Source: a virus. Taken from it: DNA of 53,750 nt. The position numbers and the translations under genes are program-made. The stretch's first letter is position 1, and every line of letters begins with the position of its first letter. The stretch spans positions 1-53,750 of IMG/VR virus record IMGVR_UViG_3300010413_000043. The stretch is one strand, 5' to 3'. Positions 36,087 to 52,549 of the stretch are shown here, one piece after another. A model generated the notes under the pieces. The model ran no database searches. It was not told the DNA's origin and saw nothing but the letters and a program-made list of their open reading frames with translations.

Positions 36087-37628
36087 CTAGTCGGTTTCTT
36101 CTGTATATGTATCATCATTATCGTTATTTTGTTCGTCTTTATATTTCAGTTTTACAAGCTTTTTAAATATTGCCCTTATCCCCTTACTTAAACCGGCAGT
36201 GCTATCAGGGGCATCATCATTATCATTCTTTCCTTCTTTTACAAAGTCTGTCAAGTTTACAAAGTATTCTTTGTATGCATCATCCTGCTCATCATCCTCA
36301 AGAAAATAAAAGTCATAAATATATCCGGCTTCGAAAAGTATTCGAGTTATCTTCATTACATTTGATGGCTGTCTTAATCCATTAACTTTATAAGGTTTTA
36401 CAAGATTTCTAATATTATTAACATATAAAGTACCCTCTTTATTTGTCTCTATGTATGTCCAATCAATACCATGCTTTTTAATAAATGCCACCTGTTTAGG
36501 TTGTGTGTATTTGAATTCTTTCCTGGTAAATATTACATCTGTTATGAAAACATCATAAATATTATCTGGATTACTGAATATATAACCAACAGGTGCGCTA
36601 TAATAATCATTTCCTTTATCGGCAGTATCGACAAAACATACCTTCCCGATTAGGTTATCCATGTTCAAATCTGCCTTTCTGAATCGTTTTAATTCAGATT
36701 TACGGAACAATATACCCTTAAATTCAACCGGATTTTGCATGTACTCGGATAACCAAAACTCCTCTTTTCCTTTCCTGTAAAATCTATCCCGGATCTTTCT
36801 ATACTTCTTAGTCGTTTTAACTTTCTCGCAAAATGAATTGTCGTTTTCATCCAGAGCCGGGACCTTTATAAATATGTCATAATCCCCGGCATCATGTTTC
36901 ACACCCATATAATCTTTCGTGGTCCAACGTGTACCCACATCATACTGCTTTACTATATCCTCAAGCCTGGAATCAAAAGCAGAATCCATAAATATGTCAG
37001 TCCTTTCAATTATAGTCGGACTCATAGCCTCATTATGTGATTTGTATAAATCGTCCGTTATAGCCACCAGAGTTGCACCCAATCCAATTATTGCACCATC
37101 CACACCGGCACCGAAATAACTTACACCCTGCTCTGATTTTTCTAATGACCAACCGGTTACAGCTGCATTTTCTCGGTCAAGATATATACCTGGAAATACA
37201 TCACAAAATTTTTCTGAATTAATAATATTCCTAACGTCACGAGAAAGTTTGTTGTATAGGCTTTGTCCGTGTGAAACTCTCATTATGCTTTCAGTCGGAT
37301 ATTTACCAAGTCCCCACGTACAAGCCATACTAATACCGTAGCTTTTTCCGGCACGAGGTGGAAGAGATGCCCCAGCTATCTCAGGGTTCTCATTGAACTT
37401 TTCTACATACTTATTACTCTTTATTCTTTCGATTAATCCAACTGGTATCTTTTCTTTTCTTTCCCACTGTATAAGGTATTGATACACGTCTATTACAGGT
37501 TGTAGAAAATCCTGACGTTCTAAAAAGAAGTCAGGATTCATGTACACACAGTATTCCCATGCATAGGAACGCGCTAATATTATCTGAAGTTCATCATCTG
37601 TAATCGAAGGAAGTTTCTCCCTACCCAT
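36087..37628 (-). CDS. terL: Terminase large subunit
   Basis: Walker A-like PPRAGKSY, Walker B VAITDDLY, and a C-terminal nuclease-like VDTADKGNDYYS. 513 aa, upstream of the portal gene. Confidence 0.85.
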   Translation of the reverse strand: MGREKLPSITDDELQIILARSYAWEYCVYMNPDFFLERQDFLQPVIDVYQYLIQWERKEKIPVGLIERIKSNKYVEKFNENPEIAGASLPPRAGKSYGISMACTWGLGKYPTESIMRVSHGQSLYNKLSRDVRNIINSEKFCDVFPGIYLDRENAAVTGWSLEKSEQGVSYFGAGVDGAIIGLGATLVAITDDLYKSHNEAMSPTIIERTDIFMDSAFDSRLEDIVKQYDVGTRWTTKDYMGVKHDAGDYDIFIKVPALDENDNSFCEKVKTTKKYRKIRDRFYRKGKEEFWLSEYMQNPVEFKGILFRKSELKRFRKADLNMDNLIGKVCFVDTADKGNDYYSAPVGYIFSNPDNIYDVFITDVIFTRKEFKYTQPKQVAFIKKHGIDWTYIETNKEGTLYVNNIRNLVKPYKVNGLRQPSNVMKITRILFEAGYIYDFYFLEDDEQDDAYKEYFVNLTDFVKEGKNDNDDAPDSTAGLSKGIRAIFKKLVKLKYKDEQNNDNDDTYTEETD

Positions 37629-37629
37629 A

Positions 37630-38058
37630 TTAAATACATGTAATTACTAATGTTTGCAGTTTTCCGGCATCGTAAATATACTCGACATCTGTAATTTTTA
37701 ATATTAAATCACCTTCATCGTAAGGATTATCAATTCTTATTTTATCGTATCTTCTAGGAACTATTCCAAAAGGAAATTCCATTGTAATACTTTTCAGCCC
37801 ATTTTTACCAGGCTTAAAGTGTGCTTCTGAATAAACTATACATTTTATAGTTTTTGCTGGTGCTAATAGTTCATCATTTTTTGCTAAAAAGTAAAATAAG
37901 GCTCCGAATATCAATAATAAATATGATAATAATAAAGCATATTTTTCAATGTCATCTAATTCAATGAACATAAATAATACTTTGTTTATTATCCATATTG
38001 CTACACCCCATTGTAGCAAAATTTTTGACCACTTTGATAAATTTTCAATTCTTTTCAT
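37630..38058 (-). CDS. Membrane protein (first late gene, in the usual TerS position)
   Basis: Two hydrophobic helices (ILLQWGVAIWIINKVLFMF, ALLLSYLLLIFGALFYFL). The listed start at 38079 is TTG; the ATG is at 38058. Confidence 0.55.
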   Translation of the reverse strand: MKRIENLSKWSKILLQWGVAIWIINKVLFMFIELDDIEKYALLLSYLLLIFGALFYFLAKNDELLAPAKTIKCIVYSEAHFKPGKNGLKSITMEFPFGIVPRRYDKIRIDNPYDEGDLILKITDVEYIYDAGKLQTLVITCI

Positions 38059-38100
38059 AATGTTACGTTTATGTAACAAAAATACTTAATTTTTTGGAAT

Positions 38101-38128
38101 AAAAAAACCCTGTGAAGCACTCACAGGG
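38101..38128 (-). terminator. Strong intrinsic terminator immediately upstream of the late operon
   Basis: CCCTGTGA(38108-38115)/TCACAGGG(38121-38128) with a 5-nt loop, followed by 7 U on the minus strand (plus-strand A-run 38101-38107). Confidence 0.8.
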
Positions 38129-38195
38129 TAACGAAACATTTAACTGAAAAGCCGGTTTAAAAATAAACCCCAGAATAATTGCCTTACAATCTATA

Positions 38196-38203
38196 CAAAT
38201 ATA
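38196..38203 (-). promoter_or_regulatory. -7-type promoter box TATATTTG (no matching -33)
   Basis: The minus-strand 13-mer TGTATATTTGTAT is identical to the one at 52517-52529. ATATTTGTAT is shared with the three early cassettes. Confidence 0.45.
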
Positions 38204-38214
38204 CAATTTTTTGA

Positions 38215-38454
38215 TTAAAACATAACCCTATACATATCTTTTAATATTATCGTATCATTGATATTGAATATTGTATCATGCTTTAAGAGTCTTGATGATT
38301 TACATCTGTAATCATAGACATAATAATACTTTTCATCTTCATTATATATTACTTTTGCCCCTGTATTATAATCCTGTTCAATACAGTTACATAATTTATA
38401 AGTTGAGCAGGAATAGAACATTAATAAGATTGTTAGTTTAGTTAGATTTTTCAT
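38215..38454 (-). CDS. Putative lipoprotein (79 aa)
   Basis: MKNLTKLTILLMFYSCS reads as a signal peptide with a lipobox-like Cys. Confidence 0.5.
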   Translation of the reverse strand: MKNLTKLTILLMFYSCSTYKLCNCIEQDYNTGAKVIYNEDEKYYYVYDYRCKSSRLLKHDTIFNINDTIILKDMYRVMF

Positions 38455-38460
38455 TTTGTT

Positions 38461-38808
38461 TTAATTTACATACAATTTATTATTTTTTATGAAATTATAA
38501 GCCAGGTCAAAGCTTCCTTTTTCCATGTCTTGTTTATTATTGGTAATATTTAAGTTATCGATTAGATCGTGAGTATCGTTTATCATTGCATTATTAATAT
38601 CCTTATTTGCAAAATGCAGAACGTTGCTAATAAAATCAAGGTCCGGATCATCTTTTCTTAGCTCATTTAATATATGAATATAAGCCAATTTAAGCCTAAT
38701 AAATACTATTCTATCATTATTGCTTTTACATAAGCTTAAAGACATATTACACAATTCAAGTGCCTTATTAAATGAGTATATTAGCTTTATCTTAGTTTCT
38801 GGATTCAT
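38461..38808 (-). CDS. Hypothetical protein (115 aa)
   Basis: ORF with an ATG at 38808. Confidence 0.6.
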   Translation of the reverse strand: MNPETKIKLIYSFNKALELCNMSLSLCKSNNDRIVFIRLKLAYIHILNELRKDDPDLDFISNVLHFANKDINNAMINDTHDLIDNLNITNNKQDMEKGSFDLAYNFIKNNKLYVN

Positions 38809-38815
38809 TTGGTTT

Positions 38816-39130
38816 TTATTTTCCAGTTATTTCATATATAAAACCAAAATCATTATGATCAACATTTATAATTAATGCTTTTGGACAATTTTGTATAGAG
38901 TCTAGTAAATAAGTATTAATTATTTCGCTTCTACCCTTTAAAAATCTCATTTTATCATAAAAATAAATGGCGTTATCTAATGAATCAAATTCTTCATATT
39001 TAGTAATATAAACAGTATCGTTAGAATAACATCCATTGTTATACTTGCAATCTCTCATTGTGTTCAAATCCGATTTTTCAGATACATTTGTTATTATCAT
39101 AATAACCCAAAATACTATATATTTTTCCAT
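38816..39130 (-). CDS. Hypothetical protein with a hydrophobic N-terminus (104 aa)
   Basis: MEKYIVFWVIMIITNV is an N-terminal hydrophobic segment. Confidence 0.55.
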   Translation of the reverse strand: MEKYIVFWVIMIITNVSEKSDLNTMRDCKYNNGCYSNDTVYITKYEEFDSLDNAIYFYDKMRFLKGRSEIINTYLLDSIQNCPKALIINVDHNDFGFIYEITGK

Positions 39131-39132
39131 AT

Positions 39133-39339
39133 CTAATCTATTAAATAATTAATTATTCCATCTACTTTAAGAGTCTCTGATTTAAGTAGTCTTATGTAAT
39201 CCGGATTATCTTTGTGTTTATCATAGTCTGCAATCATTGCAGCAAGGTTTTTAATTGGAGTGAGTTTGTTCCGGAGTTCGGCTTTCTTTTCCAGCTCTTC
39301 CCATTCTGCATCCGTGTATTTGTTTCTTAGATTTCCCAT
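39133..39339 (-). CDS. Hypothetical protein (68 aa)
   Basis: ORF with an ATG at 39339. Confidence 0.55.
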   Translation of the reverse strand: MGNLRNKYTDAEWEELEKKAELRNKLTPIKNLAAMIADYDKHKDNPDYIRLLKSETLKVDGIINYLID

Positions 39340-39340
39340 T

Positions 39341-39928
39341 TTATAACTGTTTAATTATTTCACTCCATTGCTCAGACATAGCTTCGGCAATTCCTTTGAA
39401 AGTCTTTGATCTTAATTTCGCTCTGTCATTAGATGGCGACATTTTCCAAATTCTTTGCTCTCTACCTTCTACTATATTAGTAGGTTTAAGCTTAGGTAAA
39501 CTATTTAACAAAATACAAGTAGCTTTTGTTTCTCCGTGTCCAAATTGCCACGGCTGTATGATTTGGTCTGGTTTTCTGTAATGGGTTGACATTATTCCGA
39601 TTGGATTTTCTATAGCAAAGGGTATTTTTAATTTAGTAAACGCCAAGAAAAAATCAATAGACTTCTGTTGCCTTCCATCCATTTGCTTTTCTTTAAACCA
39701 CCGAGCACCACTTGAAGCTAAGTCAGTACACGGAGGAAAGGCAATAACAGCTATATATTTGCCAGAATAAGCTTCTTTTATCGCATCGTTTCGTATGTGC
39801 CATTCATGGTATCCCCCACTACAATCTATTAAATCACAACTATAAGCCTCAATTCCTTTATTTCTAAAAGCTATAGTCACAGCCTGGCTTTCTTCGCATG
39901 CTACTAATTTCATTATTTTTCCCTTCAT
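39341..39928 (-). CDS. C5-cytosine-methyltransferase-like protein lacking a canonical motif I
   Basis: Motif IV-like FPPCTDLASSG with the catalytic Cys, motif VI-like ENP, and a C-terminal RSKTFKGIAEAMSEQW. LVACEESQA stands in place of FxGxG. Confidence 0.5.
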   Translation of the reverse strand: MKGKIMKLVACEESQAVTIAFRNKGIEAYSCDLIDCSGGYHEWHIRNDAIKEAYSGKYIAVIAFPPCTDLASSGARWFKEKQMDGRQQKSIDFFLAFTKLKIPFAIENPIGIMSTHYRKPDQIIQPWQFGHGETKATCILLNSLPKLKPTNIVEGREQRIWKMSPSNDRAKLRSKTFKGIAEAMSEQWSEIIKQL

Positions 39929-40224
39929 AAAGCTTTTTTAAGTTGTTTGCATTTTATCCAATCTTCACCTCTTCCTATTCCGGAGTCTATCATATGTTCA
40001 CATCTTAAGCATTTATTTGATCCTATATAGCATTCTTTTAATTTACATTTTTCATAAAAATCACCATCAATGTTTTTTGGATAATATTTATTTTCCTCCC
40101 ATTTTTTTAGTGCTTTGTAATATGCTTTTTCTCCTCCTTTAATTGTCCAGGTTCCGTATTTAGAATATTTATGACTTTCCTCCCAGCCGGAATTTTCCGG
40201 ATTTGGTTTGCTTGTTTGTTTCAT
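39925..40224 (-). CDS. Cys-rich small protein (99 aa)
   Basis: CKLKEC...CLRCEH...C cluster. ATGA overlaps on both sides. Confidence 0.55.
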   Translation of the reverse strand: MKQTSKPNPENSGWEESHKYSKYGTWTIKGGEKAYYKALKKWEENKYYPKNIDGDFYEKCKLKECYIGSNKCLRCEHMIDSGIGRGEDWIKCKQLKKAL

Positions 40225-41087
40225 TTTGTTAAGTATTTAATCGCATCTTTATATTTTATTCCGTTATTTTCGTAATTCATAACTGAATTATATATTGCTG
40301 GATAATTATTTTTCAATCGTTCAAATCTATTATCCAAATGGCAACCAAATCCGCATACCATACAGCCAGTCTGCTTTTCTCCTTTATCATAAATCTCACA
40401 ATAAGATAATTTATATTTTCTTATTATTTCCCAAATATCATTTGTTGTAAATATACTCAAAGGATAACTAGCCTGTCTTTTAGTATAAAAAGAATTACAT
40501 CCATTTTTTAAATACTTTTGCTTACGCAAACTGCTTTCTGAAGCCATTGTTCCAATTATTGGTTTCAATCCTGTTTCTTTCTCGAATTTAATTGCTGGCT
40601 TTTTCTTTAAATAATAGCAGCATTTTTCTGATATATCAAAATGTGATTTAATTAAATACTGCCATTTATTTGAAATCTTACCCTGATTACCATTACGACC
40701 ATTTAAGCGTAAGTTAAGAAGCTTTTCGCTATTCGTTGTTCTTGCTTCTCTTATATATTGAGCCTGCTCCTTAGATATCAGAGGAAATCCATATTTTTCA
40801 ATTACTTTTTTTAAATTTATTTCAGGCTCTATTCTAATTAAATTAGGAATAGTTTTAATAAATTTATAAATATCAGGATACTCATTTGTTGTATTGAAAA
40901 ATACGGCTGGTATATCTTTTTTTATCATTCGACACAAATATAACAATACTGTACTGTCCTTACCTCCTGAAAAACTTACATAGCTATCAAAATGATTAAG
41001 CCAATTTTCTATAGTTCCTAAAGCATGGTCAATTTTTTGATTTATATTCCATGTTAATCTATCGTTATATTCTTTAATACTTACCAT
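40221..41087 (-). CDS. PAPS-reductase / DndC-like PP-loop ATPase
   Basis: PP-loop SFSGGKDSTVLL and a C-terminal Cys cluster CMVCGFGCH. Confidence 0.7.
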   Translation of the reverse strand: MVSIKEYNDRLTWNINQKIDHALGTIENWLNHFDSYVSFSGGKDSTVLLYLCRMIKKDIPAVFFNTTNEYPDIYKFIKTIPNLIRIEPEINLKKVIEKYGFPLISKEQAQYIREARTTNSEKLLNLRLNGRNGNQGKISNKWQYLIKSHFDISEKCCYYLKKKPAIKFEKETGLKPIIGTMASESSLRKQKYLKNGCNSFYTKRQASYPLSIFTTNDIWEIIRKYKLSYCEIYDKGEKQTGCMVCGFGCHLDNRFERLKNNYPAIYNSVMNYENNGIKYKDAIKYLTK

Positions 41088-41140
41088 CTCTTCAATTTTT
41101 AATTATAAACTATCTTTAAGTGCTTCTTTTCATGTAATTA

Positions 41141-41983
41141 TTATGAAATATAAGATAAATAATCTGAAATATCATTTATTAAAACATCAATCATTTCATT
41201 TTTACTTTTCAGCGTTTTAAGTTTTTTTATTGATTTTAGATTATCTAAAATCATTAATTGTTTTTCTTTAGATATATCTTTATGAAACACAGCTTTTTCA
41301 ACTGCATATTTAACAGCTTTGCGAATTGATTCTTCTTCTTTTTTTGCTTCCTCTAATGATATAAATGATTTTCTATAATCACTATCGCCAAATGGTTTAG
41401 TGTCGCTAAAAGCATAATTATTATTTATCTGAGTAAATCTTAAATAATTTCTGTTTTGCTTTCCAAAACGTGCATATTCTGAATATTTTTCACTTAATTT
41501 ATTATATTCATCTATGGCTATTTCTCGTCCATTTACTGTAAATAATACTTCATTTGATGAATACATTCCAGTTACATAAGAATCAATAAAATTTGATTCT
41601 GAATAAACCATATAGCCTACGATAATAATTTTAACATCTTTAGGCTCAGGATCTTTATAAACAGGCTCAAAATCTTTCAATTCTTTTCTATTAGCTATTG
41701 CTCTTAATGTTTCCTGTTCAGATGATTCAGAAGAATAATTCTGTGGCTTAGATTCATAATACTCAACTGTTATTATTTCTTCGCCTCTCGAATAATGAAT
41801 TATTTCTTTAGAATTTTTAAGTGTTTGAAACACATCACTTTTTTTTATTATAATATCTTGATGCGTCAATTCACTATCTATAATATTGCCATTAAGTAAG
41901 TATTTAGTATAATTAGACAATCGACCTCTTTTTATTAGAAAAGCATCTTTTTCAACTATTTCAATTACTTTAATTTCTTCCAT
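41141..41983 (-). CDS. Hypothetical protein (280 aa)
   Basis: ORF with an ATG at 41983. Confidence 0.65.
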   Translation of the reverse strand: MEEIKVIEIVEKDAFLIKRGRLSNYTKYLLNGNIIDSELTHQDIIIKKSDVFQTLKNSKEIIHYSRGEEIITVEYYESKPQNYSSESSEQETLRAIANRKELKDFEPVYKDPEPKDVKIIIVGYMVYSESNFIDSYVTGMYSSNEVLFTVNGREIAIDEYNKLSEKYSEYARFGKQNRNYLRFTQINNNYAFSDTKPFGDSDYRKSFISLEEAKKEEESIRKAVKYAVEKAVFHKDISKEKQLMILDNLKSIKKLKTLKSKNEMIDVLINDISDYLSYIS

Positions 41984-42010
41984 GAATATTTTTATTTTAG
42001 TGTTTAAAGT

Positions 42011-42247
42011 TTACTTTATTTTTAAAAAATCTATAAACCGCTCATTTTTGTGTATCTTCTCGATTATAGCGTTTTTTATGTCCGGGTCAGTTGAAGATAG
42101 ATAGTCTTTATTTAAAAGCTCTATTTCTTTCTCGCACTCCTCTATTGTAAAAGAAACATTTTTCTCTTTTTTAGATCTAAGAACAATTATAGAGAACGTA
42201 ATAAGGCATAAAGCCTCTATTATAAGTACTATTAGTATTACTTTCAT
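42011..42247 (-). CDS. Small N-terminally anchored membrane protein (78 aa)
   Basis: MKVILIVLIIEALCLITFSIIVL is a transmembrane segment. Confidence 0.55.
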   Translation of the reverse strand: MKVILIVLIIEALCLITFSIIVLRSKKEKNVSFTIEECEKEIELLNKDYLSSTDPDIKNAIIEKIHKNERFIDFLKIK

Positions 42248-42252
42248 TTTTT

Positions 42253-42762
42253 TTATTTTTTTTGCATTAATAATAATTGATTCTGAGCAATTTTAGCAAT
42301 TTCATAAGCTACTTTTATCTTAGAATACTCATTGCTTGTATTGTCAGTTTCATACGATTTGTTTTCTTTAAAAAAAATATCCCATTCTTTTACACTTTTT
42401 TCTTTGCAGCCTATTTTAATTAAATCTTTGAATACTATTATATTCCATTTGCAATAAAGATTTAATATTATAGCTCCGACATCCTGATTGCCTCTGATAT
42501 CCTGATTGCCTATGACATACTGATAGCCTATGACATCCTGATTGCCTATGACATACTGATAGCCTATGACATCCTGATTGCCTCCGACATACTGATAGCC
42601 TATGACATACTGATATCCTCTGACATTCTGATAGCCTATGACATTCTGATTGCCTTTTGTTATTAAATTACCTTCAACGTATATATTGTTACATATTATG
42701 TTTTTTGTAATTATTGTTTCACCAGATATATACACGTTTTCATTTAGCATATTTATATCCAT
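42253..42762 (-). CDS. Hexapeptide-repeat (beta-helix-like) protein
   Basis: About 10 consecutive hexapeptides (VIGYQY / VIGNQD / VRGYQY). 169 aa. Confidence 0.6.
   Translation of the reverse strand: MDINMLNENVYISGETIITKNIICNNIYVEGNLITKGNQNVIGYQNVRGYQYVIGYQYVGGNQDVIGYQYVIGNQDVIGYQYVIGNQDIRGNQDVGAIILNLYCKWNIIVFKDLIKIGCKEKSVKEWDIFFKENKSYETDNTSNEYSKIKVAYEIAKIAQNQLLLMQKK
42478..42655 (-). repeat. About 10 x 18-bp tandem repeat (coding)
   Basis: Plus strand reads gacatcctgattgcctat / gacatactgatagcctat alternating with point variants. Confidence 0.9.
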
Positions 42763-42772
42763 TCCCTCAGTA

Positions 42773-42789
42773 TATTCTATAATAGAATA
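42773..42789. repeat. 17-bp perfect palindrome TATTCTATAATAGAATA in an intergenic leader
   Basis: Read directly. It lies 11 nt upstream of the ATG at 42762. Confidence 0.7.
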
Positions 42790-42839
42790 CGTTATACCAT
42801 TAATTAATTTTGTTTTAATTTTTTTTATTTTTTTTATGA

Positions 42840-43061
42840 TTAAAATAAAGAATACTTTAGCATTACCAGCTCTGTTTTTCTAGCTTCAAGCTCTTTTATA
42901 TGATCTTCTATTCCTAAAATAGATAAAGGCCTACGATCTTTAAGCGTTTTGTATTCAGGATGGATCTCAATATCACGCTGTATTCTTCGAATAGCTCGTC
43001 TATCTATGTTTAATAGACGGTCGATTCTATTTATTTCTTCTCTGTACTCAATGTTTGTCAT
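42840..43061 (-). CDS. Hypothetical protein (73 aa)
   Basis: ORF with an ATG at 43061. R/E-rich and helical-looking. Confidence 0.55.
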   Translation of the reverse strand: MTNIEYREEINRIDRLLNIDRRAIRRIQRDIEIHPEYKTLKDRRPLSILGIEDHIKELEARKTELVMLKYSLF

Positions 43062-44074: not shown

Positions 44075-45139
44075 TTACCGGCAATGCTTGGCTTTTAAGC
44101 CATTAAGTAAATGCGCAATTACATCAACAGTCCATCCGTTACCAAGCATTCTGTATCTTTGGGTATTACTTACACAATCGGTGTATCCATCAGGTACATT
44201 TTGCAGTCTTTCGCATTCGGTTGGTGTAATGTATCTAAAAAAGAACTCGTCAGCAGGTATCCTATTCGGTAAAGTAAAAGGTACTACAACGTTATCTTTT
44301 CCAACTGTGGTTAAAGCGTTCGTTTTACCATCATATCTAAACTCAATGTATTGCTGTGTTAAGCCTTTAGTCTTTTGTTTTCCGTCCTGTCTTTTACCAT
44401 TTACTAAATACCTACCTCTCATTGCTGCAATAGCTTGCTTATCATTTGGTAAATCAACAATCCCAAAAAATCTTTGTGCGCTGTATTTCTTATGGTGGCT
44501 TGCTTCAAGCATCTGCATTTTTTCATTGTCAGCGTGTACAGTAAGCACTTTATCTTTTCTTTGGCTATGTTTAGCAAGCCATTGCATAGCCTTTTCAGTG
44601 TAGTAGTAATTTTCTTCATTTACTCCTGTTTCTCGCACATCTCCCCAAGTAATGTTTTTATCTTCTGGCTGTATTAAGTTAGGTAGGTTTGTCCAATATA
44701 GCCTTTTACGGTTCTGTGCACTTACAAGGTTGCTGTTTATTTCTATTGGTTCAACTCCTAAAGCTTCGGTAATTACCTGCTCATACTCTTTTTTCATTTT
44801 CACGTTTTCAAGCAAAAAGTATTTAGGTTTGCATTCTTTCAGTAATCGTACAAATTCAAAAAATAGTTTACTTCTTGGGTCTTCAAAATTTAATTGCTTT
44901 CCTGCAAAACTAAAACCCTGGCATGGGCTACCACCTACAAGTAAATCAATCGGTTCTAAATCTTCCGCTTTTACCTTGGTTACATCTCCAAGCTGTATAG
45001 TGTCGGGGTAGTTCTTATCGTTTACTTGGTTAGCATACTTGTCAATCTCGCTACTGTAGCGTTTATCAACTTTAATTCCTATTCTGTCTAAGGCTATCCA
45101 AATGCAGCCAATTCCGTTAAAAGTGCTTAATACGTTCAT
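44075..45139 (-). CDS. dcm: DNA (cytosine-5)-methyltransferase
   Basis: Motif I STFNGIG, motif IV GGSPCQGFSFAG, motif VI LLENV, motif X MLGNGWTV. The listed start at 45169 is TTG. The ATG at 45139 has a TAATTTTG box 12 nt upstream. Confidence 0.9.
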   Translation of the reverse strand: MNVLSTFNGIGCIWIALDRIGIKVDKRYSSEIDKYANQVNDKNYPDTIQLGDVTKVKAEDLEPIDLLVGGSPCQGFSFAGKQLNFEDPRSKLFFEFVRLLKECKPKYFLLENVKMKKEYEQVITEALGVEPIEINSNLVSAQNRKRLYWTNLPNLIQPEDKNITWGDVRETGVNEENYYYTEKAMQWLAKHSQRKDKVLTVHADNEKMQMLEASHHKKYSAQRFFGIVDLPNDKQAIAAMRGRYLVNGKRQDGKQKTKGLTQQYIEFRYDGKTNALTTVGKDNVVVPFTLPNRIPADEFFFRYITPTECERLQNVPDGYTDCVSNTQRYRMLGNGWTVDVIAHLLNGLKAKHCR

Positions 45140-45250
45140 ATTTAATTTTTTCAAAATTATTTTTGCCAACCCTCAAAAAATAAAACAAAAAGGTTCGGCT
45201 CATTTAATCAACTTCAGTGCAGTTATTCGCACTGTTCTTATACCAATTCG

Positions 45251-45547
45251 TTATGTGGCATTATAAAACCAGCCACTACCATTTAATTTGCCATCGCACT
45301 CATTAAATATTGGTTCGGTTATAACTTTGCCCTCTTTTTTCAATTCTCGCAATGCTTTTTTAATAGCTTCGTGCGAATAATATTTATTTGTTTTATGGTC
45401 AATTTCTTCCTGTAAACACATCATTCCATACCAATACCCACGCTCTTTATAGTGCCAATATTCAAGCACTTCCAAAACAACGCCACATAACAACGCATCA
45501 TACGCCATTGGCTTGCTGTTATTTGAGGTTTCGTTCTTTTTACTCAT
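45251..45547 (-). CDS. Hypothetical protein (98 aa)
   Basis: ORF with an ATG at 45547, lying between rtcB and dcm. Confidence 0.55.
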   Translation of the reverse strand: MSKKNETSNNSKPMAYDALLCGVVLEVLEYWHYKERGYWYGMMCLQEEIDHKTNKYYSHEAIKKALRELKKEGKVITEPIFNECDGKLNGSGWFYNAT

Positions 45548-45710
45548 GTTTTCTGTATTTTAAAGTTTTGTAATTCTAATTAAAACGCCAACAGGCGCAT
45601 ATGCAAACCGTTACCAACAAGCGGAAGAAAGGCGGTGCATTTAATCAAGGTTTCTGCAAATTTGACCATAATTAAAAATAGCCCTCCCCGCTTTTGGTTT
45701 TTCAAACCAA

Positions 45711-46895
45711 TTATGAATGAGCTTTGAAGTTATAAATAGGCTTAATTACTTCAATCACATCTACCGTGTCTTTTATAGCTTCTAAAATTTCGTTCATTGG
45801 CTTATATGCGTTCGGAGCTTCATCTAATGTTTCTGATAAAACAGAAGTTGAATAAACATCTTTCATTTGCTCTTTAAATTCGTCAAAATCAAGTTGTCTA
45901 TGTGCTTCTTTTCTGCCCATCAAACGCCCTGCTCCGTGTGGTGCTGAATAATTCCAATCCTCATTTCCTTTGCCTTTTGCAATAATTGATCCGTCACGCA
46001 TATTAATTGGAATCAATAACACTTCTCCTTTCTCAGCAGACACAGCACCTTTTCGCAACATCATTCTGTTAAAATCAATATAGTTGTGAATTGTTTCAAA
46101 AGAGTGCATTGCACTTAGTCCTGCTTCTCTAAGTATGATTTCAGCCATAGTTTTACGATTTAAAATAGCATACTCTTGCATTACTTTCATATCATGCATG
46201 TAGTTTTCAAAATCAGCTCCTGTTAAATAGGCTAAGTCATTATTAATATTTGGCTTTTTAAGTTTTTTCAACTCTTTACCAATTTCATTTTGTCTGCCTT
46301 CTTTTTTCAGGCGTTCAATAAGCTCTTCACGTTCTTTTGAATTGTCGGTCAAATTTCCAATTGCAATGTCTTGGTAATATTTTGCAACTTGTCCACCGAT
46401 ATTTCGAGAGCCTGAATGAATAACTAAATACAAATCGCCTTTTTCATTTTTACCAACTTCAATAAAATGGTTTCCACCACCTAATGAGCCTGTTGATAAT
46501 CTTGCACGGTCAATATTTAGATTTTTAGCAATAAGTCTATCGAAGTCAAATTCTGCTTTTGGTTCAGTGTGTATATTAAAGCCATTTGGAATAAACTCAT
46601 TTATTACAGCATCTAATTTTTGCAAATCAATTTCGTTGTCTGCTAACATTACTGTAAGCATTCCGCAGCCAATATCAACACCAACTAAATTAGGAGTAAT
46701 CTTATCTTTAATTTCCATAGTTGTGCCAATTGTACAGCCTACGCCAGCATGGCAGTCAGGCATAATTCTAATTTTAGAATCCTTGTAAGGTTCAAATTTT
46801 CCAAGTTCTTTAATCTGTTCTAAAGCAACGTCTTCTAAAGTAGTTGCGTAAATTTTAATATCGTTTCCGTTATTTCTTTTAATTATTTTTGCCAT
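45711..46895 (-). CDS. rtcB: RNA 3'-phosphate/5'-OH ligase RtcB
   Basis: PDCHAGVGCTIGT, GGGNHFIE, HSGSR and SAPHGAGR are the conserved RtcB metal/GMP-His motifs. 394 aa. Confidence 0.9.
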   Translation of the reverse strand: MAKIIKRNNGNDIKIYATTLEDVALEQIKELGKFEPYKDSKIRIMPDCHAGVGCTIGTTMEIKDKITPNLVGVDIGCGMLTVMLADNEIDLQKLDAVINEFIPNGFNIHTEPKAEFDFDRLIAKNLNIDRARLSTGSLGGGNHFIEVGKNEKGDLYLVIHSGSRNIGGQVAKYYQDIAIGNLTDNSKEREELIERLKKEGRQNEIGKELKKLKKPNINNDLAYLTGADFENYMHDMKVMQEYAILNRKTMAEIILREAGLSAMHSFETIHNYIDFNRMMLRKGAVSAEKGEVLLIPINMRDGSIIAKGKGNEDWNYSAPHGAGRLMGRKEAHRQLDFDEFKEQMKDVYSTSVLSETLDEAPNAYKPMNEILEAIKDTVDVIEVIKPIYNFKAHS

Positions 46896-47059
46896 CGCTT
46901 CGTTATTTTCAATTATTACTTTAGTATTTCAAATCGAGGTCAGTGATAACCGCCAGTTGGTAACAAGTGGTATAAAACAAAACCTCTGTTAGTGTCGTTC
47001 ATTGTTCGGGATGTGGCGGTGTCGGTTTCGATTTCATACTACAAGCCAGTTAGCGTGCA

Positions 47060-47269
47060 TTAAAACAATTCAAATTTTCCACCTTTATGATTTCCGGATG
47101 CTCTCTGATCTGCTAATTCTCTTACACCTCTATTTGCCTTAATTTTGTTCAGGCAGTAATTATATCTATCTATAATTGACTGTTGTTTGTAAAGGTGATT
47201 AATTGCCTCGTCTGATACTGATGTTAGTATAGCTGCGTCTTTTTCGATGTTTTTTGTAAATGAGTTCAT
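47060..47269 (-). CDS. Hypothetical early protein (69 aa)
   Basis: First ORF after promoter cassette 2, with the ATG at 47269 (MNSFTKNIEKD). The listed upstream extension starts at a TTG inside the promoter. Confidence 0.55.
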   Translation of the reverse strand: MNSFTKNIEKDAAILTSVSDEAINHLYKQQSIIDRYNYCLNKIKANRGVRELADQRASGNHKGGKFELF

Positions 47270-47370
47270 GATGTTTCGTTTAATGTTTCGTTTAATGTTT
47301 CGTTTGTTACTTATACGATACAAATATATGAAATGTTACTTTAAATGCAAAGAAATGTTACTTTTTTTTT
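47270..47370 (-). promoter_or_regulatory. Early promoter-leader cassette 2 (3 copies of the 12-nt leader repeat)
   Basis: Minus-strand TTTG (47351-47348), N19, TATATTTG (47328-47321). The leader is AAACGAAACATT x3 (47271-47306). Confidence 0.75.
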
Positions 47371-47380
47371 ATTTGATATA

Positions 47381-47402
47381 AAAAAACCAGGTTTTATCCT
47401 GG
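47381..47402 (-). terminator. Weak hairpin plus U-run after the TerS-like gene
   Basis: CCAGG(47387-47391)/CCTGG(47398-47402) with a 6-nt loop, followed by 6 U on the minus strand. Confidence 0.5.
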
Positions 47403-47421
47403 AAAATATAGTTTACAATGA

Positions 47422-47853
47422 CTATTTTTTATACTTGCTTTTTGATGATTCTTTCAATTTTAATAATAGGTCTGGATCGACATCATTAAGATTTATATTG
47501 TTCTCAGTTTTTCCAATACCTTTATTCTGATTTATCACAATGTTAGGATCTTTAGTAAATCCTCGGCTCCTTCCTTTCTGATTTAAATAGTACTCAACGG
47601 CTTTTAATCTGATTGCATCATTGTCAGATGTCATGAGATCTATTATTGTTCCCTCGGCTATATCCAGATTCCTTTCTTCTATTTCTATTAAGATATCAGA
47701 TGGTAGATTCAAAGCCCTTTTTCTTACTGCTTGTCTTGTAAGATGTATACCAAGATCCTTTTGAATGTGTGCTGCAGTCTGAGCGTATAGGCCAGAATTT
47801 TTTCGTAAGTATTCTATGAATTTCTTTCTTGATAGTTTAGGAGTAGGAGCCAT
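47422..47853 (-). CDS. Terminase small subunit candidate
   Basis: N-terminal HTH-like segment (SGLYAQTAAHIQKDLGIHLTRQAVRKRA), then DAIRLKAVEYYLNQKGRSRGF, a pattern typical of TerS oligomerisation cores. 143 aa. Confidence 0.45.
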   Translation of the reverse strand: MAPTPKLSRKKFIEYLRKNSGLYAQTAAHIQKDLGIHLTRQAVRKRALNLPSDILIEIEERNLDIAEGTIIDLMTSDNDAIRLKAVEYYLNQKGRSRGFTKDPNIVINQNKGIGKTENNINLNDVDPDLLLKLKESSKSKYKK

Positions 47854-47973
47854 AAGCTAAAATATTATGACAACCATATTTATTAACATTTGATTTATAA
47901 TTTCCTTTATTTTTATTTATTTCAATTAAATGCTTCATAGGTTGTCTTGTTAATAACTTTTGTAAAATTAAAC

Positions 47974-48019
47974 AAAAAAACGTGAAAATGTATTGTTTAA
48001 GATACATAATTCCACGTTT
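47974..48019 (-). terminator. Long imperfect hairpin plus U-run
   Basis: AAACGTG(47978-47984)/CACGTTT(48013-48019) encloses ATGTAT/ATACAT. The plus-strand A-run at 47974-47980 gives the U-tail on the minus strand. Confidence 0.55.
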
Positions 48020-48070
48020 TAAGTTTAAACAGCACAAATTAACCCAGGAAAAGTTATTTATTTGCGTTTC

Positions 48071-48415
48071 CTAATCATCTATTTTTTGAATCAATTCAGC
48101 GAGATTATATAATTTTTTCATCAAATCAACATCTCTTAGTCCTCTTACATCTACAATATGATGATCGATATCTCTACATAGTTTAATAATTTCCTCTTTT
48201 CTTGATGGAACATAATTAAACCATTGTTGTGCTTTATCAGTATATTCAATATTTAACCCAGGGAATATCTCCTCCCATTCACTTGCACTTTTTATTGTAC
48301 CTTCACGAAAGTAATTTTCCGGACCATCATATTCCTTAAGTAATTTATAATATCTCTCATGTTCTTTATTTTCCCCCAGTCTTTTGGACAATTGTTTTCT
48401 CTTAAATAGTTTCAT
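48071..48415 (-). CDS. Hypothetical protein (114 aa)
   Basis: ORF with an ATG at 48415. Confidence 0.6.
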   Translation of the reverse strand: MKLFKRKQLSKRLGENKEHERYYKLLKEYDGPENYFREGTIKSASEWEEIFPGLNIEYTDKAQQWFNYVPSRKEEIIKLCRDIDHHIVDVRGLRDVDLMKKLYNLAELIQKIDD

Positions 48416-48416
48416 A

Positions 48417-48587
48417 TTATGCCTTTTTAATTCGATTAATAATAGTGTTCTTTATCCTTGTTTCTTTTCCGGTTAAAAGCTTAATTAAACGTTTTCTGAG
48501 TTCTGATTTTTCTTCCCCGCCGAATTTATCGACTATGCTGTATATTTCAATTAATTCTGCTTTGGTAATCATTTGCTCTATTTTCAT
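48417..48587 (-). CDS. Small hypothetical protein (56 aa, below the ORF-track cutoff)
   Basis: I translated it by hand: MKIEQMITKAELIEIYSIVDKFGGEEKSELRKRLIKLLTGKETRIKNTIINRIKKA. The stop abuts the next ATG (TAATATG). Confidence 0.4.
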   Translation of the reverse strand: MKIEQMITKAELIEIYSIVDKFGGEEKSELRKRLIKLLTGKETRIKNTIINRIKKA

Positions 48588-48831
48588 TTTTAATTATTAC
48601 TTTTTCGAATTCTTTAATCGGGTCAAGTCCTTTGAATTTTAAAAACATGAAGCATGTAGTTGCTAGGTCTGTAGCTTCTTCAATTTCGTTTTCTTCGCTG
48701 TATGCGTTTTTAAGCTCATTAAACTCTTCTTCAATTTTATCAAAAAAGTCTTTTTCTGTTGTATGTTCATTAATGAGGCCACGATTTTTTATGGCCTCGT
48801 ATGAGCGGTTTATTAATGTTTTCATATCCAT
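48547..48831 (-). CDS. MazG-like nucleotide pyrophosphohydrolase candidate
   Basis: A 94-aa all-helical pattern with EE..E and E..D acidic pairs (KIEEEFNELKNA...EIEEATDLA), resembling MazG/dUTPase_2. Confidence 0.4.
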   Translation of the reverse strand: MDMKTLINRSYEAIKNRGLINEHTTEKDFFDKIEEEFNELKNAYSEENEIEEATDLATTCFMFLKFKGLDPIKEFEKVIIKNENRANDYQSRIN

Positions 48832-51134
48832 GATAGTTGTCCTTTCTGCTCTATTGCATTTCTATGATTTTTTACATTGACATTAAAATATGATTCTTTT
48901 AATTCAATTGATATTGATTTACGATTCATTTTTAATGCCTGATACCCTTCTGAACCAATTCCTCCGAATGGGCTCAATAATGTTTCACCTTTATTTGAAT
49001 ATAAAGTAATTAGTCTTTCAATAACAGGAAGTTGCAGAGGACAAATGTGTTTTTCATCATTATTTGCTCTGGCATTAATATATTGAAGCGTATCTGTTGC
49101 GTTTATATCCATCCATACAGGAGACGCATATCTTTGCCAAATATGATGAGAATATTGCTCTTTTCTTGAATATTTACTTTCTGGATCATACCCCCAGAAT
49201 TCATTAAATCCTGATATGTCACGGGGAAATTTATCAAAATCTCCCATTGGTATGTAATTTTCAAGTAAGTCATGTTCAACAGGAACTTCATTTTCATGTT
49301 TAGTTTTAAAACATTGAATTAAATCAAATATTCCAGTTCTAACCTGAATACTATCCTTACATAATTGTTGATGAGCTAATCCTTTTGTTTTTGTTCTTAC
49401 AGCTGCTAATAATGGATCTTTCCATATAGCGTGTTCTGAATGTAAAAACATATCTTCATCCTCGAATAAATCACCTATCATTGAATTAAATCTTCTTAAC
49501 CCTATATAACCATCACGGCTTTTTAATGTTGGTAAATTCATTGAATGAACACATATACATCTTCCAGGCTTAATTACTCTTTTTATTTCTTTAACTAAAT
49601 ACTTGAATTGTTGTTTGAATTGTTCATAATCAGATACATTACCCATATCCTCAATATGATTCGAATAAACATATAAATCTGCAAATGGAGGAGAAAATAC
49701 CATTATGTCGACTGAATTGTCTGGTATTTCTTTTATTCTTTGAACACAATCACCACGCATAAGCCAGTAATTATCTGTTTTTACGTCTGATGTTTTATCT
49801 ACTTTCACAGTTAATTTGTTATTTAAATTCTTGTTTACTGATTTTGTCATTAATTCTTGCATTTCATTAAATTTTTTATGTTTTTCTTGTTGAGTTTTAG
49901 TTACATTAATCATTCTATCAGTTGTAATCATATAACAATTTACAGGCTCAGTTCTTCCATATCTCCATGATCTACGCATTGCTTGATATGATTGTTCAAA
50001 ACTGAAATCAACAGAATTAAATATTTGATAACCGCAATTTTGATAATTCAATCCCATTGATGCAATTGATTGTTTAGTTATCAATATTTCATATTCTTTG
50101 TGAGCAAATCCAATTAAATCAGCCTCTTTTTTTTCTTGTTTATCTGAGCCCTGAACATTTCTACAGTCATATCCTAATTTAGTTAATTGCTTATAAATAT
50201 TATCAGCCTCAATGTTTTGTTTAGTCCAAATAATTATTTGCTCATTTTTATGTATTTCTTCTTTAATTATTGATATTGTTTGATTTATTCTTTCTTTTTC
50301 TGTATCCCTTAAACTTTGATTATAGTCCGTAGCATTAACAGCAAGTCCAGGAAATAACATTCCTTCGGGTATTGGTGTACTAACTTGTTTCTCAATTATG
50401 TTTAATTTAGGTAAATCGAATCCATTCATATTAAATCCTATATCTTTAGGATGAGAATACATAATTGCCCATGTACTTACAAATTCATAAAATCTATCTA
50501 TTGCATGACCTTTAAGTCTCCATTTACTTCCTTTTTGTTTTTTAGAATCATTAACAAAATACATTGCAAGCATTTCATCGTATGTCATTACATCTAAGAA
50601 TTCACAATGATTACCTAGTTCTGTTGGATCATTAGGACTTGGAGTAGCTGAAAAACAAAATTTATATGGAGTTTCTTTAAATTTTTCAATTAATAAATTT
50701 CTATATTTTCCAGTTTGATTTTTCAGTATTGAACTTTCATCTAAACAAATACAAGAGTAAATTGAAGTATCTATATTTTCAAGTTGCTCGTAATTTGATA
50801 TTTGAATTGGTGATGTATTATTTTCACACCACCTCTTAACTTTAATATTAAACTTATTACCTTCTTCTATTGTTTGGGCTGATACAGCAAGTGGTGATAA
50901 TATTAATGAAGGTTTATTAGTATATTTATTTACTTGATATGCAATATCTAACTGCATAGCTGTTTTACCTTGGCCTGTATTGGCAAATATTGCATATTTA
51001 CCAGCCATTAAAGCTCTTTTAATTGTGAATTTCTGAAATTCAAATAATTTATCATTAAGTTCATTTTCAGAAATATCAAATCCAGAATAAATAATATTCT
51101 TCTGCTTACTATTTAAAAATTCGTTATAATTCAT
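48822..51134 (-). CDS. SNF2/DEAD-type helicase fused to an N6-adenine/N4-cytosine DNA methyltransferase
   Basis: Helicase motifs ANTGQGKT, LDESS, SAT and QAMRRSWRYGR are followed by MTase motif IV FSPPF and a C-terminal motif I SPFGGIGSEG (beta-class order). Confidence 0.8.
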   Translation of the reverse strand: MNYNEFLNSKQKNIIYSGFDISENELNDKLFEFQKFTIKRALMAGKYAIFANTGQGKTAMQLDIAYQVNKYTNKPSLILSPLAVSAQTIEEGNKFNIKVKRWCENNTSPIQISNYEQLENIDTSIYSCICLDESSILKNQTGKYRNLLIEKFKETPYKFCFSATPSPNDPTELGNHCEFLDVMTYDEMLAMYFVNDSKKQKGSKWRLKGHAIDRFYEFVSTWAIMYSHPKDIGFNMNGFDLPKLNIIEKQVSTPIPEGMLFPGLAVNATDYNQSLRDTEKERINQTISIIKEEIHKNEQIIIWTKQNIEADNIYKQLTKLGYDCRNVQGSDKQEKKEADLIGFAHKEYEILITKQSIASMGLNYQNCGYQIFNSVDFSFEQSYQAMRRSWRYGRTEPVNCYMITTDRMINVTKTQQEKHKKFNEMQELMTKSVNKNLNNKLTVKVDKTSDVKTDNYWLMRGDCVQRIKEIPDNSVDIMVFSPPFADLYVYSNHIEDMGNVSDYEQFKQQFKYLVKEIKRVIKPGRCICVHSMNLPTLKSRDGYIGLRRFNSMIGDLFEDEDMFLHSEHAIWKDPLLAAVRTKTKGLAHQQLCKDSIQVRTGIFDLIQCFKTKHENEVPVEHDLLENYIPMGDFDKFPRDISGFNEFWGYDPESKYSRKEQYSHHIWQRYASPVWMDINATDTLQYINARANNDEKHICPLQLPVIERLITLYSNKGETLLSPFGGIGSEGYQALKMNRKSISIELKESYFNVNVKNHRNAIEQKGQLSWI

Positions 51135-51275
51135 TATTTCGTTTTAGTGTTAAACATTTACAAGCTTCATAATATCCTTTAGATATTTTTATAAATACTT
51201 TGCCTTTACATTCCACGCAATTTTCATTCGGGGTAAGGATTGTTTGAGAATTTTTTTTAATTTGAAATTTTTTAA

Positions 51276-51500
51276 TTAATATCTACTCTTGAACTCCCGC
51301 CTGGAATTCATTTTTTCTCTCTTTACTTCGGTTTCGATTACATCAATATTATTAGTAATGTAATCAAAAACAGGCCGATTATTATAGTTCTTTTCAAAGT
51401 TATAATAAATGTAATGTAAATAACTGGCTGGTACATTACACATTTTTACGCCCTTGTACTTTCCGAAAGGCATTATTGAATGATCGTTTAATATACTCAT
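51276..51500 (-). CDS. DUF3820-like small protein
   Basis: MPFGKYKGVKMCNVPASYLHYI matches the mPFGKykG...P..YL core of that family. Confidence 0.45.
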   Translation of the reverse strand: MSILNDHSIMPFGKYKGVKMCNVPASYLHYIYYNFEKNYNNRPVFDYITNNIDVIETEVKREKMNSRREFKSRY

Positions 51501-51510
51501 GATTAAAGTT

Positions 51511-51783
51511 TTATGTTGTTTCTCTTTCTATGCTAATTAAATTAAACCTGATTGTTGTTCCATTCTGGAATTGAATATATCCCTCCTGAACTCCATGACC
51601 GCAGCAAGCATTTTTGACACCCGTTAAATTTGCCAGACATGGATCATGACCATCATTAGTTGCTGTTTTTCCACATTTAGGACATTGGCGATAATCATTT
51701 ATAGTAATTCCATCCTCGTAAACCCACTCTTGTTTATAGAAGTCCCAAAAAACTAAATGACCGAAGTGATAAGCTGAAATCAT
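51511..51783 (-). CDS. Cys-rich hypothetical protein
   Basis: CPKCG...HDPC...ACCGHG cluster. The listed start at 51789 is TTG; the ATG is at 51783. Confidence 0.55.
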   Translation of the reverse strand: MISAYHFGHLVFWDFYKQEWVYEDGITINDYRQCPKCGKTATNDGHDPCLANLTGVKNACCGHGVQEGYIQFQNGTTIRFNLISIERETT

Positions 51784-51785
51784 AA

Positions 51786-51941
51786 TCAAAATATTATATC
51801 GTAAAAATCAAGATTATTAACCATGTCACATTCACTTACTAATGCTTTACTGGCTATTTCAATAGCTTCATTCTCTGTGTAGTCTCCATCAATTGTTATC
51901 TCAACATCAATAGTTACTTTGCCTTTAAATGTGTGTGCCAT
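51786..51941 (-). CDS. Small hypothetical protein (51 aa, below the ORF-track cutoff)
   Basis: I translated it by hand: MAHTFKGKVTIDVEITIDGDYTENEAIEIASKALVSECDMVNNLDFYDIIF. The stop is 2 nt before the next ATG. Confidence 0.4.
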   Translation of the reverse strand: MAHTFKGKVTIDVEITIDGDYTENEAIEIASKALVSECDMVNNLDFYDIIF

Positions 51942-51953
51942 TTCTTTAATTTT

Positions 51954-51989
51954 AAAAACCCCCGGAGCCTTCCAACTCCCCGAGGGTTT
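51954..51989 (-). terminator. GC-rich imperfect hairpin plus short U-run after the first gene of early unit 2
   Basis: AAACCCCCGGAG(51956-51967) pairs with CTCCCCGAGGGTTT(51976-51989), with one mismatch and a 2-nt bulge. Followed by 5 U on the minus strand. Confidence 0.5.
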
Positions 51990-52008
51990 GAGTTTACATG
52001 TATGAAAA

Positions 52009-52338: not shown

Positions 52339-52426
52339 GATGTTTCGTTTAATGTTTCGTTTCTATTGTATACTATACAAATATATGAAATGTTACTTTA
52401 AATGCAAAGAAATGTTACTTTTTTTT
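52339..52426 (-). promoter_or_regulatory. Early promoter-leader cassette 3 (2 copies of the leader repeat)
   Basis: Minus-strand TTTG (52408-52405), N19, TATATTTG (52385-52378). Same 52-nt core as the other two cassettes. Confidence 0.75.
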
Positions 52427-52435
52427 AAAAAAAAT

Positions 52436-52464
52436 AAAAAAAAGCCTGGTTGGGTTCCAGGCTT
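52436..52464 (-). terminator. Intrinsic terminator ending early unit 1
   Basis: AAGCCTGG(52442-52449)/CCAGGCTT(52457-52464) with a 7-nt loop, followed by a U-run on the minus strand. Confidence 0.8.
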
Positions 52465-52527: not shown

Positions 52528-52549
52528 CAAAAATTATTTTCTTTTTTAC

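Follow-up and report, generated by a model that had tools for sequence, protein, structure and literature searches.

A PAPS-reductase-family gene, a cysteine-containing ORFan and a C5-methylase-like gene with a replaced cofactor loop: probably separate accessory genes of a tailed phage

The locus described here belongs to the viral record IMGVR_UViG_3300010413_000043, positions 1-53,750, which constitute the window (the whole stretch of DNA analysed, 53,750 nucleotides, on which all positions are given). It comprises three consecutive open reading frames (ORFs) on the minus strand, which carries all the genes of the window: a 288-residue PP-loop protein of the PAPS-reductase family, a 99-residue protein with five cysteines and a 195-residue protein with the fold of the C5 cytosine DNA methylases. 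The original prediction had joined the three in one pathway for a non-methyl modification of DNA. They are probably separate accessory genes, located where methylase and anti-defence genes abound in the genome of a tailed phage whose host is probably a member of the Bacteroidales, and not a dedicated pathway: the middle gene is unique, the trio was found in no other genome and the great majority of loci with one of the flanking families lack the other. The locus adds new members to two catalogued phage families, PHROG 424 and PHROG 757, plus an ORFan. The three-gene hypermodification pathway is unsupported, and recognising this spares effort on a false lead. The interest that remains is in the clade of the 195-residue protein, where the sequence C-E-E-S-Q replaces the glycine loop of the methylases, and in a weak, recurrent adjacency of this clade with PAPS-like genes.

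Arrangement and co-occurrence of the three genes

The three ORFs and the motifs quoted for them are present in the DNA and in the translations (Table 1), the cysteines of the 99-residue product being C60, C65, C72, C75 and C92. The three frames are probably more than chance, a 99-codon open frame being unlikely, by estimate, at about 28% G+C. Both junctions had been described as ATGA overlaps, and this holds for the first of them, where the DNA read directly gives ...ACA AAA TGA for the end of the 288-residue gene and the ATG of the 99-residue ORF overlaps it by 4 nt (40221-40224). The second overlap (...GCT TTA TGA with the ATG at 39928, positions 39925-39928) exists only if the 195-residue ORF uses its first ATG. 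Nearly all the aligned homologues begin one or two residues ahead of the conserved L-V-A-C-E-E-S-Q, a start that matches the internal ATG at 39913 (Met6); for this reason the latter is probably the true start, the product would then have 190 residues, and the junction would become an 11-nt gap in which the ATGA overlap is lost. Overlaps of this kind are ordinary in this phage genome, with 4-nt overlaps at 7 of the 68 same-strand junctions of the window and other overlaps or gaps of at most 10 nt at 24 more; being so common, they are no sign of a functional unit. A megablast search with positions 38000-43000 against 50,697 phage records gave no match.

Co-occurrence was followed in three samples of related loci, designated by L numbers. 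The first comprises 80 viral contigs encoding the 195-residue family, searched over 6 kb on each side with a hidden Markov model (HMM) of the PAPS-like proteins. The second comprises 89 viral contigs encoding PAPS-like relatives of the 288-residue protein, searched over 5 kb on each side with an HMM of the 195-residue family. The third comprises 80 loci from bacterial and archaeal genome assemblies encoding the 195-residue family, searched in the same way as the first. A PAPS-like gene was identified within 6 kb of the 195-residue family in 9 of 160 loci (L021, L053, L023, L187, L261, L211, L204 and L185/L190, the last two representing one phage) and was lacking in 94%. In the reverse direction the 195-residue family was identified near PAPS-like genes in 3 of 89 loci and was lacking in 97%.

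Among the positive viral contigs of the first sample, L021 has the order PAPS-like gene, 104-residue cysteine-containing ORF, 195-residue family, while the PAPS-like gene lies directly upstream of the 195-residue family in L053 and directly downstream in L023. In the genome assemblies it lies directly upstream in L187 and L261, downstream in L211 and L204, and 4.6 kb away in L185/L190. The positive loci of the second sample are L177, where the two genes are adjacent, and L165 and L174, where they are about 4 kb apart. The families adjoin in 7 of the 9 positive loci and both gene orders are seen. Their adjacency is a minority, non-obligate arrangement, compatible with a shared DNA-modification module.

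The usual neighbours of each family are of other kinds. All-against-all clustering of neighbours identified no conserved partner of the 195-residue family among 80 loci, the largest cluster being a methylase or ParB-methylase group present in 12 of them. The commonest neighbour of the PAPS-like family is a ParB-like or ParB-methylase cluster (25 of 89 loci, L084-L178); the presence of such genes beside phage PAPS-like genes parallels DndB-DndC. A canonical Dcm is found near PAPS-like genes in 8 of the 89 loci, and genes for HNH endonuclease, single-stranded-DNA-binding protein and primase/helicase are also frequent beside them. The close homologues of the 288-residue protein (64-74% identity) have as neighbours terminase, DUF5131, helicase and glycosyltransferase-like genes, and the 195-residue family was never found beside these homologues. 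In two of the loci (L098 3327-3998 and L099 464-1135) DUF5131 (PF07505) stands directly upstream of a PAPS-like gene of 68% identity, with a SNF2/DEAD helicase after it.

The 99-residue protein exists and is rich in cysteine, as had been noted, and from its sequence appears to be a lineage-specific ORFan. It has no match in Pfam, PHROG, NCBIfam or PADLOC, and among 5.8 billion proteins its sole match is itself. By tblastn at E <= 1e-3 no relative was identified in the 80 viral loci of the 195-residue family or in the 89 PAPS-like loci, and at E <= 10 the loci so searched gave only chance-level matches (E >= 0.7); the related loci number 249 in all, the last 80 of which (the genome contigs) lay outside this search. 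Small cysteine-containing ORFs precede the 195-residue family in L021 and L025-L027, with 17-21% identity to the 99-residue ORF, which is not significant, and L021 is the only one of these four loci that also holds a PAPS-like gene. A conserved middle gene between the PAPS-like and 195-residue genes was rejected because the 99-residue ORF has no homologue and these alignments are not significant. The product may be a small zinc-binding protein. The small cysteine-containing ORFs of L021 and L025-L027 form a family of their own (...VDPVHAAG-C-Y-C-x-E-C...), with no PHROG match, and stand directly upstream of the 195-residue family in these four loci.

The two flanking protein families

The 195-residue protein matches PHROG 757, labelled 'DNA methyltransferase', over residues 7-193 (E 5.5e-62), and has no match in Pfam, the C5-methylase family PF00145 being absent even at E <= 1. 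At least 8000 homologues were identified, with 68-79% identity among the matches listed, and an exhaustive search gave 4436 clusters at 50% identity (E <= 1e-3). Its AlphaFold2 (AF2) model is a single compact domain with a mean confidence (pLDDT) of 77, and the best Foldseek matches of this model are DNMT1, M.HaeIII and DNMT2 (E ~1e-4, template-modelling score ~0.48), followed by viral predicted structures labelled cytosine methylases. Structure prediction, which had been proposed as a check, thus gives the C5-methylase fold that the motifs had pointed to. A profile of the diverse superfamily aligned by hhalign to a profile of canonical Dcm proteins gave a probability of 94.4% (E 9e-8) with motifs I-IV aligned; the shallow family alignment against the single Dcm sequence of the window gave 1.7% and is uninformative. 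The sequence by itself found nothing among solved structures at E <= 10, and the family profile against PDB sequences found M.HaeIII only (E 0.23).

In the profile-profile alignment LVACEESQA falls column for column on the F-x-G-x-G loop of the canonical enzymes, with C11-E12-E13-S14-Q15 as the equivalent of motif I, Asp32 of the motif II Glu, Asp48 of the motif III Asp and P-P-C67-T of P-C-Q in motif IV. The original description, of a protein with PPC and ENP kept and F-x-G-x-G replaced, is therefore borne out, and the 195-residue protein can be taken on these alignments as a homologue of the C5 DNA methylases whose glycine loop has been replaced. The catalytic-cysteine motif, A-F-P-P-C67-T aligned with G-G-S-P-C-Q, is invariant across the superfamily. 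I-E107-N-P is also invariant, ENP being present in 140 of 150 representatives; the hhalign match ends after motif IV, so that the equivalence with motif VI comes from order and fold. A second invariant cysteine is Cys138 (K-x-T-C). The family descends from C5 cytosine DNA methylases and has lost the target-recognition domain, for which 195 residues leave no room, compared with 324-364 in M.HaeIII and the Dcm of the window.

All 43 aligned homologues have C11, E12, E13, S14 and Q15 unchanged, and because of this the C-E-E-S-Q loop appears to be under selection and not in decay. It is the commonest form of the loop (55 of the 150 top representatives), followed by CEFSG (25) and then by CEESG and CEYSG, all three of them intermediate forms. 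An Acinetobacter prophage relative has A-C-E-Y-S-G and a microvirus relative A-C-E-R-T-Q, while the relatives in Escherichia coli phages (RB49 gp189, rV5 gp226, Stevie gp47 and Psq-1) retain S-L-F-D-G-S-G. In canonical C5 methylases the acidic residues of motifs II and III hold the ribose and the adenine of the cofactor. The 195-residue protein keeps these two of the three canonical cofactor-contact motifs, and since the glycine loop is replaced its cofactor pocket would be a remodelled one.

Compared with the C5 methylases of PF00145 (M.HaeIII, M.HhaI and Dcm), the 195-residue protein shares fold and descent, P-C and, judged by order and fold, E-N-x, and acidic residues that align to motifs II and III; it differs in having about half the size, no target-recognition domain, C-E-E-S-Q for F-x-G-x-G, P-C-T for P-C-Q, the extra invariant Cys138 and no Pfam match. 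RB49 gp189, rV5 gp226 and gp47 of Citrobacter phage Stevie share with it A-F-P-P-C-T-x-L, E-N-P, K-x-T-C, R-S-x-T and the small size, and differ in the canonical S-L-F-D-G-S-G, in an insert of about 20 residues after P-W-x-(F/Y)-G and in overall sequence (26-29% identity). These three are annotated 'DNA methyltransferase' and no characterisation of them was found in the literature; a search on PHROG 757, its E. coli phage relatives and microvirus methylases likewise found nothing about the 195-residue family, and JSS1_004, which this search also brought up, is a kinase with no bearing on the family. CmoX is described as a phage C5-carboxymethyltransferase, a cytosine-C5 enzyme that adds a non-methyl group to phage DNA (PMC12783734). 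It is a precedent for the kind of non-methyl C5 chemistry proposed earlier.

The family is widely distributed. At 50-69% identity it was identified in genome contigs (L183-L262) assigned to Firmicutes, Bacteroidota, Proteobacteria, Actinobacteria, Planctomycetota, Verrucomicrobiota and the candidate phyla radiation, and to archaeal metagenome-assembled genomes (MAGs) of Woese-, Pace- and Thorarchaeota; the binning of MAGs may place viral contigs wrongly. For an accessory protein of phages this is a very high degree of conservation. The microvirus relative (L179 5902-6636; GenBank MG945187, Microviridae sp., single-stranded DNA, 6796 nt) has 36% identity; the record is marked 'UNVERIFIED' and, if genuine, a methylase-like gene would be unusual for so small a genome. 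From this distribution the family appears to act as a stand-alone protein. Ten longer relatives scanned for fused Pfam domains had none. Two predicted structures of BFVD, A0A6J5NPY6 (1126 residues) and A0A6J5SE15 (1397 residues), contain an embedded domain structurally like the 195-residue protein at 24-29% identity, and one of the two is annotated with a helicase or UvrB N-terminal domain; the module is thus also part of giant multi-domain proteins.

The 288-residue protein was confirmed as a PP-loop protein of the PAPS-reductase/DndC type. It matches PF01507 (PAPS_reduct; 2.9e-19, 70 bits for a cut-off of 22.5) and PHROG 424 (6.3e-48, residues 17-279), with partial and weak PADLOC matches to BrxP (5.9e-13) and SspD (1.8e-10). 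The AF2 model, built from a 35-sequence alignment, has a pLDDT of 94, and its best Foldseek matches are CysH and APS reductases (E ~1e-9), followed by the PAPS domain of FAD synthase, CysD and the sulfur transferases TtuA, LarE and NcsA. The residues S40, G42, K43, D44, S45, C156, C157, C197, C242 and C245 are invariant in the 35 homologues. The arrangement C-C ... C-x-x-C is reminiscent of the cysteines that hold the [4Fe-4S] cluster in APS reductases, and a phmmer match to the Pseudomonas aeruginosa APS reductase spans residues 199-256. C249 of GFGCH is the sole candidate for a C-terminal catalytic cysteine of the E-C-G-L-H type; it lies four residues past the CxxC and is Ala (GFGAH) in several homologues, so that a catalytic cysteine of the CysH type is not conserved. 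Homologues of the PHROG 424 type number thousands, and because the closest named ones come from Bacteroidales MAGs the phage host is probably a member of this order.

With DndC, SspD and BrxP the protein shares a PP-loop domain of the same Pfam family, the weak BrxP and SspD matches and conserved cysteines suggestive of an iron-sulfur (Fe-S) cluster. It differs from them in the partial coverage of the models, in having no DUF4007 and in standing in a locus with no NTPase of the DndD, SspC or BrxC type, no cysteine desulfurase and no DndE nearby. It is a direct member of PHROG 424 and, unlike many phage copies, has no ParB-like neighbour. For phosphorothioate synthesis a P-loop NTPase is essential beside the PAPS-domain protein (PMC12914056). 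Family scans identified no such domain in the genes that flank the 288-residue gene, the only Walker-A proteins of the window being DnaB, AAA_24 and the SNF2-methylase, at least 8 kb away; for lack of an adjacent P-loop NTPase the reading as a phosphorothioation system was rejected. By analogy with DndC, SspD, BrxP and TtuA, the protein would be a PP-loop ATP pyrophosphatase that activates a substrate by adenylation and acts in sulfur transfer, probably carrying an Fe-S cluster. Published work treats the phage copies of PAPS reductase as uncharacterised or as candidates for a function against host defence (PMC13551039, PMC11437467), and the first of these papers cites a phage PAPS reductase reported to evade Dnd (its reference 56).

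Weighing of the alternative explanations

Several points weigh against taking the three ORFs as separate genes. Co-occurrence was measured within 5-6 kb only, in three samples of 80-89 loci at most that were picked by similarity; the model of the 195-residue protein is only moderately confident; and phages unrelated to one another have the two flanking families side by side (7 of 160 loci, with L177 and the window in addition), probably above the frequency of random placement, which a rough estimate puts well under 1%. The locus L021, moreover, repeats the order PAPS-like gene, small cysteine-containing ORF, 195-residue family. This recurrence would also fit a functional link of the facultative kind, or a mobile cassette common to the two genes. 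The original proposal, in which the PP-loop protein, the cysteine-rich protein and the methylase-like protein would install an S- or N-containing non-methyl group on a pyrimidine activated by the cysteine, draws on the same adjacency and on L021, as well as on the tight, co-directional packing of the genes and on chemistries that are complementary on paper. Even so it is very improbable, given that its middle gene is an ORFan and the one in L021 is unrelated to it, that 94-97% of the loci of each flanking family do without the other, in either gene order where both occur, that the C-E-E-S-Q sequence is identical in proteins with and without a PAPS-like neighbour, and that 4-nt overlaps are common here and the second one probably disappears with the likelier start. 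A looser association limited to a minority of phages, in which the PAPS-like protein might supply or modify a cofactor or substrate of the methylase-like protein as a facultative partner, or the two genes move as one cassette, is better placed but still quite unlikely. It would account for the immediate adjacency in the window, L021, L053, L187, L261, L023, L211, L204 and L177, where the hosts are different and the paired PAPS-like sequences very divergent (in L021 and L023, 25-26% identity to that of the window). Also in its favour is the frequency of Dcm and of ParB-like or ParB-methylase genes near PAPS-like genes, which suggests that the latter are generally associated with islands of DNA methylation. 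Against it, members of the two families are found apart in the great majority of cases, there is no subfamily specific to the paired state, and the adjacency may just reflect a shared accessory module, its excess over chance being a rough estimate. Separate accessory genes remain the preferred reading. Their position beside three further methylase genes makes an involvement in DNA modification plausible.

Under the preferred reading the 195-residue protein would act alone: Cys67 and Glu107 would serve its attack on C6 of cytosines in DNA, its sequence specificity would be low and its cofactor pocket remodelled. That it is still a methyl donor enzyme has somewhat less than an even chance; some other substrate or a non-catalytic role is possible but rather unlikely, and a different chemistry at C5, non-methyl or cofactor-free, is more doubtful again. 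The narrower case of a small, ordinary C5 cytosine methylase dependent on S-adenosylmethionine (SAM), protecting the phage DNA from restriction, is a serious candidate that nevertheless falls well short of probable. The label of PHROG 757, the 'site-specific DNA-cytosine methylase' of some IMG records, the homology with PPC, ENP and the acidic residues of motifs II and III kept, the F-D-G-S-G of the E. coli phage relatives and the frequent presence of other methylases nearby all speak for it. Against it stand the absence of a PF00145 match, the replacement of the aromatic residue and both glycines of motif I by an invariant sequence, a size too small for a target-recognition domain, motif VIII, where Q-x-R-x-R appears as E-T-K-A-T (in an alignment read by eye), and the complete Dcm that the phage already encodes. 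That the CEESQ clade is instead a stand-alone enzyme independent of SAM, using Cys67 and Glu107 and perhaps Cys138 for another chemistry on cytosine in DNA, is unlikely; the reaction might be the addition of a non-methyl group at C5 from a different adenosyl cofactor, an exchange without cofactor, a deamination or the loss of a group from C5, and in some phages, a minority, a PAPS-like PP-loop enzyme encoded next to it might supply the protein. Either way the label 'DNA methyltransferase' of PHROG 757 covers a very large and conserved clade with a replaced and fixed cofactor loop. Should this clade prove not to be a methylase, the annotation of many phage genomes would be wrong and an activity common in phages would have escaped notice; if it is independent of SAM, its conservation across phyla, microvirus included, would point to a DNA-modifying or anti-defence activity that is widespread but so far unrecognised. 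As for the 288-residue protein, phage 'PAPS reductase' genes are routinely reported as auxiliary genes of sulfur metabolism, and a CysH that boosts the sulfate assimilation of the host agrees with the 'PAPS reductase' label of PF01507 and PHROG 424, with the category 'auxiliary metabolic gene' and with the best structural matches. This is scarcely credible and was rejected: the NCBIfam models of CysH and APS reductase score far under their cut-offs (38.8 bits for a cut-off of 165, 21 for 254 and 26.5 for 235), the candidate catalytic cysteine lies four residues past the CxxC and is not conserved, and related loci have beside the PAPS-like gene ParB-like or ParB-methylase, Dcm, primase/helicase and HNH genes, with no sulfur-metabolism genes. 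The lack of a conserved CysH cysteine and the ParB and methylase neighbours indicate DNA or defence biology for this protein and its relatives.

Genomic context

The Dcm, RtcB, SNF2-methylase and Dam-like genes (Table 1) all lie within 13 kb upstream of the three ORFs, and the terminase gene TerL follows them. With the methylases and RtcB upstream and TerL after, the three ORFs come last in an early accessory region that holds many genes for self-modification and counter-defence.

Table 1. Coordinates of the features in the window and of the small cysteine-containing ORFs in related loci
Feature	Position	Strand	Basis or remark
PAPS-reductase-family PP-loop protein, 288 residues (PHROG 424)	40221-41087	-	ORF list, Pfam/PHROG match
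SFSGGKDS, PP-loop (residues 38-45 of the 288-residue protein)	40953-40976	-	
Cys156/157 (CC of the 288-residue protein)	40617-40622	-	
CMVCGFGCH (residues 242-250 of the 288-residue protein)	40338-40364	-	
99-residue ORFan, 5 Cys	39925-40224	-	ORF list
C5-DNA-methylase-fold protein without target-recognition domain, 195 residues (PHROG 757)	39341-39928	-	ORF list, PHROG match
C-E-E-S-Q (residues 11-15 of the 195-residue protein)	39884-39898	-	
P-P-C (residues 65-67 of the 195-residue protein)	39728-39736	-	
E-N-P (residues 107-109 of the 195-residue protein)	39602-39610	-	
TerL	36087-37628	-	follows the trio; assigned by reading the sequence, not by family scan
Canonical Dcm-type C5 DNA methylase, 364 residues	44075-45169	-	PF00145 5.9e-45, PHROG 116
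RtcB RNA ligase	45711-46895	-	PF01139 4.3e-60, PHROG 1075 1e-135
SNF2/DEAD helicase and N6/N4 DNA methylase fusion, 770 residues	48822-51134	-	PF01555 1.1e-15, PF00271, PF00270, PF00176
Dam-like N6-adenine methylase	52550-53074	-	PF05869 1.3e-14, PHROG 111 3e-33
Small cysteine-containing ORF	L021 1561-1875		directly upstream of 195-residue family
Small cysteine-containing ORF	L025 5588-6007		directly upstream of 195-residue family
Small cysteine-containing ORF	L026 4086-4508		directly upstream of 195-residue family
Small cysteine-containing ORF	L027 3546-3890		directly upstream of 195-residue family

Four methylase or methylase-like genes plus RtcB, across 44075-53074 and the 195-residue gene, are for a 54-kb genome an unusually dense set of functions in self-modification and repair. 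Between this region and the three ORFs, at 42253-42762 on the minus strand, lies a gene for a 169-residue protein whose middle part consists of near-identical short repeats (…GYQYVIGNQDVIGYQYVIGNQDV…). It matches only PHROGs 5070 and 7964, whose function is unassigned in PHROGs, and its sequence suggests a repetitive fold of the beta-solenoid type.

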